Shown here in pieces: positions 60,517 to 63,897 of a stretch of 64,000 nucleotides of DNA; position 1 is the stretch's first letter, and the number at the start of each line of letters is the position of its first letter. The DNA is from Candidatus Latescibacterota bacterium. Its GTDB lineage: Bacteria > Latescibacterota > UBA2968 > UBA8231. The position numbers were made by a program, and so were the translations under genes. The DNA lies in assembly GCA_965223905.1 (NCBI GenBank), contig CBDCXV010000010.1, positions 1,184,001 to 1,248,000 of the forward strand, written 5' to 3'. The notes beneath the pieces are model-generated. The model made no database searches, was not told where the DNA came from, and was given only the letters and a program-made list of their open reading frames with translations.

Positions 60517-60747
60517 AAACCTTCTCGCGGCCCGCCCGGTCCCCGAGCCGCGGCGAGAGTTAGCCTGGCCAGCCCATTGGTTCGGCCGCCTCGGGCGCGT
60601 TACCCGCAGCCCTGAAGGGTTATGCGCACATAGCGACCGCAGAGCCGGAACGGATTTCCAGTAAGGCGTGGGGGCGGTGTAATCGGCGGGAGGGCGCATC
60701 CGGGAAGGGGAGCCAATGGTCCCGGCCCGGTTACGAAATGCCCGGAT

Positions 60748-61143
60748 TCAGAGCGCGGGCAGACTCCAGGGAACGAACAGGGTGGCGAGCAGCAGCAGGA
60801 TGGTCGCCGCAAAGGCCCCCAGCATGGCCTGCAAATGGAGGCGGCCCGCCTTGCGGCGCAGCCGTTCGGCCAGCTCCCGGTCCCGAATCGGCTCGGTTCC
60901 TCCCGCGGTTGCGCGTGCACCACGCGCGGCGAGCAGCACTCAGGTCGATCCGCGGGCCTGCAACAGGCACAGGATGCCCCCCCAGAGCGGCAGGAAGACG
61001 GCGACGCGCAGAGGCAGCGGACTTGCAGTCACGGTGACCAGGGCGGTGAAGCCGAGCGCGAAACAGCAGAGCAGGATCCCGAAGAAGAGGCGGAAGCGCC
61101 GGCTGTCCTCCTCGATGTTGCACAGGTCTGCGCTATTCGTCAC
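60748..61143 (-). CDS. Membrane protein with in-frame TGA (candidate selenoprotein, 131 aa)
   Basis: ORFs 60940..61143 and 60748..60939 are contiguous in one frame, separated only by TGA 60942-60940 (..LLQARGST-TGA-VLLAARG..). A SECIS-like hairpin follows. Confidence 0.7.
60903..60933 (-). promoter_or_regulatory. Candidate bacterial SECIS element
   Basis: After the TGA: 12 nt, then GCGCGTG-GTG-CACGCGC (7-bp stem, G-first loop 19 nt from the UGA), with a lower stem CTCGC/GCGGG. Confidence 0.62.
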
Positions 61144-61216
61144 GAGTGATCAGTCCGCCAAAACCGGGGCAACGGCTGCCGGGGTTTCGGGCAGCTTCGG
61201 CGAGCTGTCCCGCACC

Positions 61217-62170
61217 TCACGGCGCCGGAGCCATGGTGTTGCGGATCCAGTCGCGGATGAGGACCGCGGTTTCCTCCGGGTATTCGAGGTGGGGGGCGTG
61301 CCCGCAGTCGTCGAAAACGTGCAGTTTCGCCGCCGGCAGGTCCGCTTCGAAGCGGAGCGCGTTGAGGGCGGGCACGATGCGGTCCTGCTTTCCCCAGAGG
61401 ATCAGGGCCGGCAGCGACAATTCCGAATACTTTCGCGGAAAGGTGTCGATGTCGGGCGGGGTCAGGTTGCGCGCCGTCATCCGGTACGCGAAAGGGGTGC
61501 CGGGCATGGCGAAGTACTCGACCGCCCGGTCGACCAGCCGCTCCGGGATCCGGCGGGGATCGTAATAGATCCGGGAATAGGTCGAGCCGGCGACGCGCCG
61601 CACCAGGCCGCTGGCCACCGCCAGCCGCTGCAGCGTGGGGCTCAGCAGCAGGGCACCCGGTTTTCCAGCGAGGAGCGGGACGAATCCCGGCAGCGGCTGC
61701 GGGTACCCGGCAGCGGAGATCAGCACCAGTCCGCGCAGGTTCAGCCCGGCCGCCCAGGGACGCTCCTGCGGATCGGCACAGGCAAGCCTCAGGGCGATGG
61801 CCCCGCCGAGGGAGTTGCCGACGAGGACGAGGCGGTCGAGCTCGAGGGCGCGGATGAACTCGCCGACGCAGGCAGCCAGCCGGTCGAGTGAGTACTGCTC
61901 GGTGTCGGGCAGGGACCGGAAGCGCGGCCGGCTGCTCTCCCCGAAGCCGACGAGGTCGACGGCGACCGTCCGGAAGCGCTCGCCGAGAAAGGGCTCCACA
62001 AACTCCCAGGTCCCCTTGTGATCGAAGAGGCCGTGCAGCAGCAGCAGCGTGTGGTCGGCGGACAGGTTGCCGTTGTCGGCACAGGCCATCTCGACGGGCA
62101 GGCCGTCGTCACGGCCGACCAGGACCCGGGATGTGCTCACGGAAGGGGTTGGTGGCGCGGTCGCAGCCAC
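61217..62170 (-). CDS. Alpha/beta fold hydrolase
   Basis: LLHG, DLVGFGES, nucleophile elbow GNSLGG, WGKQD, GHAPHLE. Confidence 0.9.
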   Translation of the reverse strand: MAATAPPTPSVSTSRVLVGRDDGLPVEMACADNGNLSADHTLLLLHGLFDHKGTWEFVEPFLGERFRTVAVDLVGFGESSRPRFRSLPDTEQYSLDRLAACVGEFIRALELDRLVLVGNSLGGAIALRLACADPQERPWAAGLNLRGLVLISAAGYPQPLPGFVPLLAGKPGALLLSPTLQRLAVASGLVRRVAGSTYSRIYYDPRRIPERLVDRAVEYFAMPGTPFAYRMTARNLTPPDIDTFPRKYSELSLPALILWGKQDRIVPALNALRFEADLPAAKLHVFDDCGHAPHLEYPEETAVLIRDWIRNTMAPAP

Positions 62171-62173
62171 CGG

Positions 62174-63076
62174 CTATCCGGCGCCGGCGAGAATCGCATC
62201 GATCGCCTCGAGCTCGTCGTCGCTGAAACGCACGCCGGCGGCGCCGAGGTGATCGTCGAGCTGACCGGGGTTCTTGGCGCCGACCAGAACCGTGCTGATC
62301 GCCGGCAGCCGCAGGATCCAGGCGATCGCCAGCTGCACCAGCGACAGCCCCTTGTCCGCGGCGAGCTCCGCCAGGCGGTCGGCCACCGCGACGGTGCGCG
62401 CGAACTGCCCCCCCTGGAAATGGGCCCGCTGCGAGCGGTAGTCGTCGTCGGCGAAGCGGTGGCCCGGCCGGTACCTGCCGGTGAGAAGGCCCTGCCCCAG
62501 CGGCGAGTACGCCAGGATGCCGATGCCGCGCTCGACGCAGAACGGTATGTCCTCCGCCTCGATGCCGCGGTCGAGCAGGTTGTAGCCGGGCTGCAGCGAT
62601 TGAAAGGGAGCGGTCTCCATAGCCCGGGCCATCTGCTCCGCGTTGTAGTTGGAGACGCCGATGTAGCGGGTCTTGCCCTCCCGGCGCAGCTGCTCCATCG
62701 CCTCCATGCTGGCCTCCACCGGGTAGTCGGGGTTCCAGCTGTGGATCTGGTAGAGGTCGACGTAGTCGACGTCGAGCTGCCGCAGGCTGTTCTCCATGGC
62801 AGCGCGGATCGCCCCCGGGGAGAAGTCGCCGCTCACCTTGGTCGCCAGGAAGCAGCGCTCGCGGTAGCCGCCGGCGAGGGCGCGTCCGACGATGCGCTCG
62901 CTGGCGCGGTACGACTGCGCCGTGTCGACCATGGTGATGCCGCGGTCGATGGCGGCGCGAACGGTGGCGACGGCCATCTCTTCTGCGACGGCCCCCATGG
63001 CGCCGCCGAACGGCCAGGCTCCGAGGGCGATCGCGGGTATCTGCGGGCCGTTCTTTCCAAGCTGTCGATACTCCAT
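62174..63076 (-). CDS. Aldo/keto reductase
   Basis: DTAQSY, LATK, DLYQIH, IGVSN, AYSPL..GLLTG. Confidence 0.93.
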   Translation of the reverse strand: MEYRQLGKNGPQIPAIALGAWPFGGAMGAVAEEMAVATVRAAIDRGITMVDTAQSYRASERIVGRALAGGYRERCFLATKVSGDFSPGAIRAAMENSLRQLDVDYVDLYQIHSWNPDYPVEASMEAMEQLRREGKTRYIGVSNYNAEQMARAMETAPFQSLQPGYNLLDRGIEAEDIPFCVERGIGILAYSPLGQGLLTGRYRPGHRFADDDYRSQRAHFQGGQFARTVAVADRLAELAADKGLSLVQLAIAWILRLPAISTVLVGAKNPGQLDDHLGAAGVRFSDDELEAIDAILAGAG

Positions 63077-63171: not shown

Positions 63172-63897
63172 TTACATCAGGTTCAGCCAGTCGCCGAGAA
63201 GGAACCTCACGCGCCCGATCAGCAGCGACAGCCGCGCCATGATCGTGTAGCCGAAGGAGGCGCCGAAAGAGATCATCAGCACCCAGATCCCCAGCTTCGA
63301 GACCATGCCGACGGCGCCGCGGTGCTCGACGGAGAAGAAGAAGTAGACCAGTACCGAGACGACGCCGACGAGGATGATGAACAGGTCGAGCCCGGCCCAG
63401 GACAGGGTGATCGGCTGCAGGGTCGGTTCCACCTGTTTCAGAATGAACGTCGAGATGTAGGCCGGGATGGTGAACCCGGCCCCGAGGCCGAAGAAGAACC
63501 CGAAGGCGATGCGGCTGGTCCAGCCGATGCGGGTGCTGAACCGGGTCAGCATCAGGATCCCGAGCGCGGTCGGGAACAGCACCAGCCAGGCCTTTCCCTC
63601 CCAGGCGCCGGCTTCACCCAGCCCGGACAGCTTGTCGATCACCTCGCCGTAGATGGTCGGGTACCAGGTCTGCCCGAACACGTAGCCCGCGGCGACGCCG
63701 ACGAAGATGTGCTCGGCGAGCTTGAACAAGGGGTTGTCGCGGTAGAGGAAGCTGTAGAGCGCCAGGGTCAGGCCGGCGGCGACGATTATCCCGAAGCCGG
63801 TCCAGTCCGGGCTGAGCGTGCCGGCGGCGAACAGGTAGGCGTTGGCCGCGGCGAAAAACAGGAGGAGGGCAAGGAACAGAATGGAATCGCGGTTCAT
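63172..63897 (-). CDS. Polytopic membrane protein of unknown function
   Basis: LTLALYSFLYRDNPLFKLAEHIFVG, YFFFSVEH, FGASFGYTIMARLSLLIGR; about 7 TM segments. Confidence 0.75.
   Translation of the reverse strand: MNRDSILFLALLLFFAAANAYLFAAGTLSPDWTGFGIIVAAGLTLALYSFLYRDNPLFKLAEHIFVGVAAGYVFGQTWYPTIYGEVIDKLSGLGEAGAWEGKAWLVLFPTALGILMLTRFSTRIGWTSRIAFGFFFGLGAGFTIPAYISTFILKQVEPTLQPITLSWAGLDLFIILVGVVSVLVYFFFSVEHRGAVGMVSKLGIWVLMISFGASFGYTIMARLSLLIGRVRFLLGDWLNLM

Follow-up and report, generated by a model that had tools for sequence, protein, structure and literature searches.

Known bacterial selenoproteins were inventoried in a 2026 review (PMC13188914), and in the parts of that review drawn on here Table 1 holds 119 selenoprotein families and subfamilies, nearly all with a PF, TIGR, NF, cd or PTHR identifier; integral-membrane selenoproteins are rare among its bacterial families. 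The passage of the review on decoding gives a consensus for the bacterial SECIS element, in which the apical loop lies 16-37 nt from the UGA and a G is found at the first or second position within the loop. The deep-Sep study (PMC12013277) put forward several hypothetical proteins as selenoproteins, for instance DG, DW and DF, and the type of criteria given in the passages considered comprises a TGA aligned with Cys, TGA-containing homologues in other users of selenocysteine (Sec), a SECIS-like stem-loop and the presence of Sec machinery. BSepDB (PMC13326102), as its text is excerpted here, searches known families only. None of the 119 entries, in the table as available here, describes a protein of the kind considered below, and the deep-Sep and BSepDB passages mention no such membrane family. 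The rows of the review table that are defined by cd or PTHR identifiers are soluble folds; the scans described below covered the Pfam and NCBIfam models. A full-text literature search found no paper on the family, to which supplementary tables could still add.

The window, by which we mean the whole stretch of 64,000 nucleotides analysed here, comes from a Candidatus Latescibacterota bacterium (GCA_965223905.1, contig CBDCXV010000010.1). The original prediction held that two small open reading frames on its minus strand are one frame interrupted by a single TGA, and direct reading and translation, together with homologues that align across the TGA, bear this out (Table 1). The frame opens with a GTG (61143-61141) and runs for 67 codons up to the internal TGA, after which 63 further codons lead to a terminal TGA (60750-60748); the read-through product has 131 residues (P0001), with the internal TGA as codon 68. 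In an ORF listing made with translation table 11 the halves come out as two ORFs, 67 and 63 aa long, and the public gene calls split the gene likewise, with 4 clusters at 67 aa and 8 at 63 aa. Public records also hold truncated clusters of the gene of 74 and 67 aa, and the only name found in these records is 'hypothetical protein'.

Table 1. Features of the locus and its upstream neighbours, in window positions.
Feature	Position	Strand	Basis or details
Read-through CDS (GTG start, proposed Sec TGA, terminal TGA; 131 aa)	60748..61143	-	Full-length homologue matches
In-frame TGA, proposed Sec codon, residue 68	60940..60942	-	TGA in 8, Cys codon in 19 related genomes
SECIS-like stem-loop	60896..60939	-	Upper stem 60927-60921/60917-60911, loop GUG 60920-60918, lower stem 60933-60929/60906-60902
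Predicted TM helix 1, about residues 19-39	61027..61089	-	AF2 helix 12-38, pLDDT 94; hydrophobic sequence
Predicted TM helix 2, about residues 47-63, ending 5 residues before Sec68	60955..61005	-	AF2 helix 50-65
Predicted TM helix 3, about residues 105-125, encoded past the TGA	60769..60831	-	AF2 helix 89-123; conserved in homologues
Alpha/beta hydrolase gene, directly upstream, 73-nt gap	61217..62170	-	Pfam Abhydrolase_1/_6
Aldo/keto reductase gene, second upstream neighbour	62174..63076	-	Pfam Aldo_ket_red, E 1e-77

The TGA itself is found without difference in contigs of three public runs from three studies, one of them perhaps the source assembly, and none of these contigs has TGC, TGT or TGG in its place. 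In a sponge metatranscriptome run (X11), one contig of 158 nt matches the 5' part of the gene (window 60989-61146) without a difference, and runs from five further studies also contain the stretch. The 158-nt contig is the sole RNA contig found, covers sequence upstream of the TGA only and comes from a type of library that can contain DNA; the match hints at a sponge-associated organism and at possible transcription, and demonstrates neither a transcript of the full gene nor read-through.

In a six-frame search of related genomes, homologues align across the TGA with E-values down to 1e-33 to 1e-68, and at the level of the frame this is far above chance. A word-based protein search returned 10 proteins, of which 7 are full-length (121-134 aa) and have Cys at the TGA column within the motif S/R-T-C-V-F-L-A-A-R-G, in agreement with the T-C-V that the original prediction gave for this site in similar small proteins. 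The two closest proteins (80% identical, 74 aa) stop exactly one residue before the column, and one 107-aa protein was left out, as it diverges after residue 46. Across 61 related genomes the six-frame search gave 19 real homologues, 7 with one in-frame TGA and 12 without, and reading their codons places TGA (7/7) and TGC or TGT (12/12) at the same column. A profile search of 168 genomes of the phylum found the family in 28, with one in-frame TGA in 8 and none in 20; at the codon level the column holds TGA in 8 and TGC or TGT in 19 (locus L080 was not parsed). Since the genomes are related to one another, they do not count as independent cases. The Sec forms occur in G000, G001, G002, G003, G015, G016, G026 and G098, which represent 6 genera and 2 families.

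When 23 of the proteins are aligned, the Sec/Cys column is one of five invariant columns (N9, R18, C/U68, V69 and G75), two of which, V69 and G75, fall after the TGA; a homologue comparison had been proposed as a check, with Cys or TGA at the column and conservation on both sides as the supporting outcome, and this is what we see. The conservation bears directly on the possibility that the locus holds two separate genes, one for a 67-residue two-helix protein and one for a 63-residue protein made from the adjacent GTG by termination-reinitiation. Such an arrangement would fit the public gene calls, which list the halves separately, and the GTG that is the codon directly 3' of the internal TGA in the window. 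However, 19 related genomes encode both halves in one unbroken ORF that has Cys where they join, G015 and G026 have GTA, which is no start codon, directly past the TGA, and the residue encoded there is the family's invariant Val. The GTG is also preceded by no ribosome-binding-like purine run, consistent with the earlier remark that the downstream half begins at the next codon without a ribosome-binding site, and we consider two genes very unlikely.

The proposal that Sec68 pairs with an N-terminal Cys did not hold up in the same alignment. Cys8 lies outside the conserved columns of the 23 proteins and is found in the rows of the window protein, G002 and P0004 only, the other rows having S, G, H, A, T, N, Q, R or V, and a Cys8-Sec68 pair is therefore not supported. 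The redox or metal site suggested along with it is putative.

An exhaustive profile search extended the family to 1844 cluster representatives at E<=0.001, of which 507 match at E<=1e-10. We examined 150 representatives, namely the best 149 of the 1844 profile matches and the window protein, from clusters formed at 50% identity. The column holds Cys in 143 (the window protein is counted here, with U read as C) and Ser, Asp or Gly in 5, and in 2 the chain ends just before it; with 5 of the 150 representatives lacking it, Cys at this position is dispensable in some members. The near-invariant residues of the set are N9, R18, Q62, T67, U/C68, A72, G75, G82 and D88. A second Cys stands nine residues past the column (window residue 77) in 28 of the 150 representatives, none of them a Sec form, and is possibly a resolving Cys. 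A scan of metagenomes, in which the column was back-translated as Cys, retrieved Cys forms only and added no Sec-form DNA, and a tblastn search of plasmids with a Cys homologue gave no match.

The eight Sec forms are themselves diverse. They differ at up to about 68% of residues, sit on separate deep branches, and require 3 changes of Sec label on the maximum-likelihood tree, 1 of which is forced when only the well-supported branches are considered. The frame is intact in all eight. For four pairs of Sec forms, pN/pS is 0.32, 0.51, 0.56 and 0.34 after the TGA, and 0.20, 0.46, 0.65 and 0.31 before it, which indicates purifying selection, and with it conservation, on both sides of the UGA. A sequencing error, or a decaying gene in which TGC or TGT has become TGA, would require only a single base change, but it would have to explain the same TGA in 8 genomes from 6 genera and 2 families at pairwise identities down to 31-33%, the absence of frameshifts, a pN/pS below 1 downstream and the unchanged TGA in contigs from three studies. 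We regard this explanation as effectively refuted, with a negligible chance of being right.

A perfect inverted repeat of 7 bp (GCGCGTG/GTG/CACGCGC) starts 12 nt past the TGA, and RNAfold adds a 5-bp lower stem to it, as had been described in the original prediction. The window loop, GUG, at a distance of 19 nt from the UGA, has G as its first base, and thus agrees with the bacterial consensus as quoted in PMC13188914, in line with the proposal that this stem-loop is a SECIS candidate. A similar hairpin is found in 8/8 Sec forms, with loops GUG, GGA, GGG or CGGGA that lie 16-19 nt from the UGA and have G in the first two positions. Taken alone, however, the window hairpin is barely above chance: in DNA of 66% G+C its z-score against shuffles is -1.95, and 9 of 200 shuffled sequences fold as well. 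Nor does folding energy discriminate the two forms, and we discarded it for this purpose, the mean MFE over the 48 nt past the codon being -17.5 kcal/mol in the 8 Sec forms and -16.5 in the 19 Cys forms. The conserved Ala-Arg-Gly-x-Arg codons are self-complementary when the DNA is rich in G+C, and for this reason several Cys forms fold much the same hairpin.

Covariation gives a similar picture. Three stem pairs are changed on both sides among the Sec forms, a number reached by 23 of 500 column shuffles; double changes preserve the stem in G098 (two, from G-C and from C-G to U-A) and in G016 (one, from U-A to C-G), and the alternating GC sequence allows a register slid by 2 pairs equally well. 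A search of window positions 60700-61200 against Rfam gave no SECIS family and two chance-level matches only (E 1.3 and 9.4). The hairpin is compatible with a SECIS element, and its energy and covariation evidence is weak; it is not counted as independent proof because of the shuffles, the slid register, the equal energy of Sec and Cys forms and the self-complementary codons.

The genome to which the window belongs (7.9 Mb, 11 contigs, 93.6% complete) was asked for selA, selB, selC and selD, as the original prediction had recommended, and all are present. The tRNA-Sec scores 72.6 bits and is called SeC with anticodon tca by ARAGORN, selA scores 541.3 bits, selB 321.6 bits (344.6 when the C-terminal part is included) and selD 367.4 bits, all above the curated cut-offs. 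Additionally, selA exceeds its cut-off in 27/27 other family-bearing genomes, so a necessary condition for Sec decoding holds in the 7 other Sec forms, and the presence of selA does not separate Sec from Cys forms. The selD gene (L023, G000:C10:1272233-1273156) lies about 24 kb past the window end and itself contains a canonical in-frame TGA, followed after 11 nt by a hairpin of 6 bp with the loop GGUC. Two FdhA-like genes, L092 (G000:C10:10525-11259) and L093 (G000:C5:718-1437), have one TGA each at the U-H motif; their hairpin, of 7 bp with the loop GGUCU, also begins 11 nt past the UGA. The 60-nt contexts of L092 and L093 are identical, which suggests a recent duplicate or assembly redundancy.

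These genes are also relevant to a reading in which the UGA is read through without Sec, by a near-cognate Trp or Cys tRNA or a suppressor, or in which TGA has been reassigned in this lineage. A frame that is open and conserved past the TGA would be expected here as well, and the hairpin, which does not tell Sec from Cys forms, is no obstacle to it. TGA is, however, the commonest stop in the window, where it ends 66/95 long frames and 3/5 Pfam-confirmed neighbour genes, and none of these frames or genes has an internal TGA. The residue aligned with the UGA is Cys, the standard counterpart of Sec, and the genome has a complete Sec machinery together with the bona fide Sec genes for SelD and the FdhA-like proteins, whose hairpins have the same geometry. 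Decoding without Sec thus appears extremely unlikely.

The two small ORFs are therefore very probably a single gene for an inner-membrane protein with three TM helices, in which UGA codon 68 is a candidate Sec codon decoded by SelA, SelB, tRNA-Sec and SelD. The original prediction that the UGA encodes Sec is supported, at the level of a candidate, by the Sec/Cys column, the Sec machinery and a hairpin that fits the consensus. In the proposed mechanism the genome's own SelA, SelB, tRNA-Sec and SelD would decode UGA 68 as Sec, guided by the stem-loop that starts 12 nt past it. As a candidate for a new selenoprotein family that uses ordinary bacterial decoding, the gene is well supported.

Similarity searches place the protein in no known family or solved fold. 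The read-through protein, like two Cys homologues scanned with it, matched 0 Pfam-A and 0 NCBIfam families at E<=1, scans of the two halves gave nothing usable, and a sequence profile search of the PDB gave a best E of 0.31. We predicted the structure with AlphaFold2 from the 150-row alignment (pLDDT 94.1, pTM 0.86), and a Foldseek search of the PDB with the predicted model gave 0 matches at E<=0.001; a structure search of the Atlas with the Cys homologue P0004 found nameless clusters from Bacteria and Archaea. The model contains a helix at 12-38, a short helix at 43-47, a helix at 50-65, a short helix at 69-73, a beta-hairpin at 76-85 and a helix at 89-123, and places Sec68 just ahead of the short helix 69-73. 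A count of Arg and Lys finds 3 ahead of helix 1, 1 within the first loop, 10 between helices 2 and 3, and none at the C-terminal end. The positive-inside rule, which is established for membrane topology, would put the N-terminus and the long Sec-bearing loop after helix 2 on the cytoplasmic side, an orientation that we infer with lower confidence than the single frame, the Sec/Cys column and the Sec machinery. The selenol would therefore sit where the membrane faces the cytoplasm, at the start of the short helix, and the other near-invariant residues, among them Asn9, Arg18, Gln62, Thr67 and Asp88, all fall in segments assigned to the same side.

The gene neighbourhood offers some additional information. 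The window gene is convergent with a TIGR01777 (YfcH-type) gene, and an alpha/beta hydrolase is directly upstream in 13/19 related loci (these are kin, so this number overstates their independence) and in 1/4 metagenome loci with scanned upstream ORFs (L086). The hydrolase neighbour does not reach an NCBIfam equivalog cut-off and therefore gives no specific substrate clue. In 6/19 loci (L030, L032, L033, L034, L036 and L041) the hydrolase is replaced by a conserved protein of about 480 aa that matches no Pfam or NCBIfam family. A cluster of aldo/keto reductase ORFs is found in 5/19 related loci, assigned by Pfam scan for the window copy and by homology for the other 4, and the reductase is directly upstream in the metagenome locus L085. 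Upstream of the reductase in the window lies a 241-aa ORF (63172-63897, minus strand) that has no Pfam or NCBIfam match. In both L038 (26-2824) and L086 (815-2875) the gene for a Crp-family regulator is followed by those for the alpha/beta hydrolase and the small membrane protein, and a cNMP-binding/response-regulator protein comes next in L038 and in loci related to it.

To our knowledge, Sec replaces solely Cys residues that are important for catalysis or redox chemistry, and on this basis the Sec forms would single out Cys68 as the family's functional residue. This makes a family of at least 1844 clusters, which has no Pfam model and no solved fold, experimentally approachable. A possible function, put forward tentatively, would be that of a single-Sec/Cys site for redox chemistry or for handling electrophiles or chalcogens, whose substrate would be associated with the membrane and which would probably act with the alpha/beta hydrolase encoded upstream; this reading draws on the identity of the residues, on rules of topology and on the neighbouring genes, and the hydrolase is absent from 6/19 related loci. 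A more specific proposal, which we consider improbable as it stands, is that the protein is the founding Sec member of a widespread three-helix membrane family whose single invariant Cys/Sec, a catalytic nucleophile on the cytoplasmic face of the membrane, would form, with the hydrolase and the aldo/keto reductase, a hitherto unrecognised module that repairs or detoxifies oxidised or electrophile-modified membrane lipids. If true, this module would be a functional, and not an ancestral, bacterial counterpart of the membrane-acting selenoperoxidases. Thiol and selenol peroxidases use a nucleophile placed at a helix N-terminus, with Arg, Thr, Gln and Asn as companions, and the predicted position of Sec68, with conserved Arg, Thr, Gln and Asn in segments assigned to the same side of the membrane, may be a similar arrangement.

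There is some likeness to the YgaP-like TM domain (PF11127, formerly DUF2892). The two share the motif N-x-G-x-x-x-R-x-x-R-x-x-x-G near the N-terminus, a membrane hairpin of two helices and a Cys that is conserved a few residues past helix 2, but the window family adds a beta-hairpin and a third TM helix, and its spacing from Gln to Cys differs. Matches to PF11127 are weak, being found in 8/150 representatives with a best E of 5.8e-4 (the gathering score is 25.3 bits), while the window protein and the whole window genome have none, and hhalign against 12 YgaP-like domains of related genomes aligns the first 21 columns only (probability 19%, E 0.0012). We therefore do not assign the protein to the YgaP-like_TM family, given the weak matches, the lack of one in the window genome and an alignment confined to the N-terminal motif. 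YgaP-like_TM proteins of small size (60-70 aa), whose tail W-C-L-M-D-D-I-L is conserved, do occur in 11/61 related genomes (loci L046-L057), the window genome not being among them. MerT-type mercuric transport proteins (PF02411) were also considered and set aside, there being no Pfam match at E<=1 and no PF02411 among the families matched by the 150 relatives. In structure, the P0004 predicted model resembles PF27892 (RAX1_C), a membrane domain at the C-terminus of fungal RGS-domain proteins, with a TM score of 0.82 by query over 122 aligned residues; that domain is eukaryotic, and the likeness is one between predicted models alone.

The putative SECIS element can be compared with those of known genes in the same genome. 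Like the elements of selD and of the FdhA-like genes (fdhF/FdhA), the hairpin starts 11-12 nt past the UGA and has a G+C-rich upper stem of 6-7 bp and a small loop that begins with G. It differs in having a loop of 3 nt, GUG, where theirs are GGUC and GGUCU, in having no evident bulged U, and in overlying the conserved Ala-Arg-Gly-Ala-Arg codons, which are partly self-complementary anyway.

Recognising the gene corrects the split annotations and adds a selenoprotein family that is absent from the 2026 inventory (PMC13188914) in the part of it considered here. With respect to the families of that review and of deep-Sep, as far as their excerpted text describes them, the window protein differs in carrying one Sec, in lacking a CxxU or UxxC motif and in being integral to the membrane. 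With the deep-Sep proteins DG, DW and DF (PMC12013277; Table 1 of PMC13188914), as they appear in the same excerpts, it shares the features on which those were put forward, the window gene having a TGA aligned with Cys, TGA homologues in other Sec users, a SECIS-like stem-loop and the Sec machinery.
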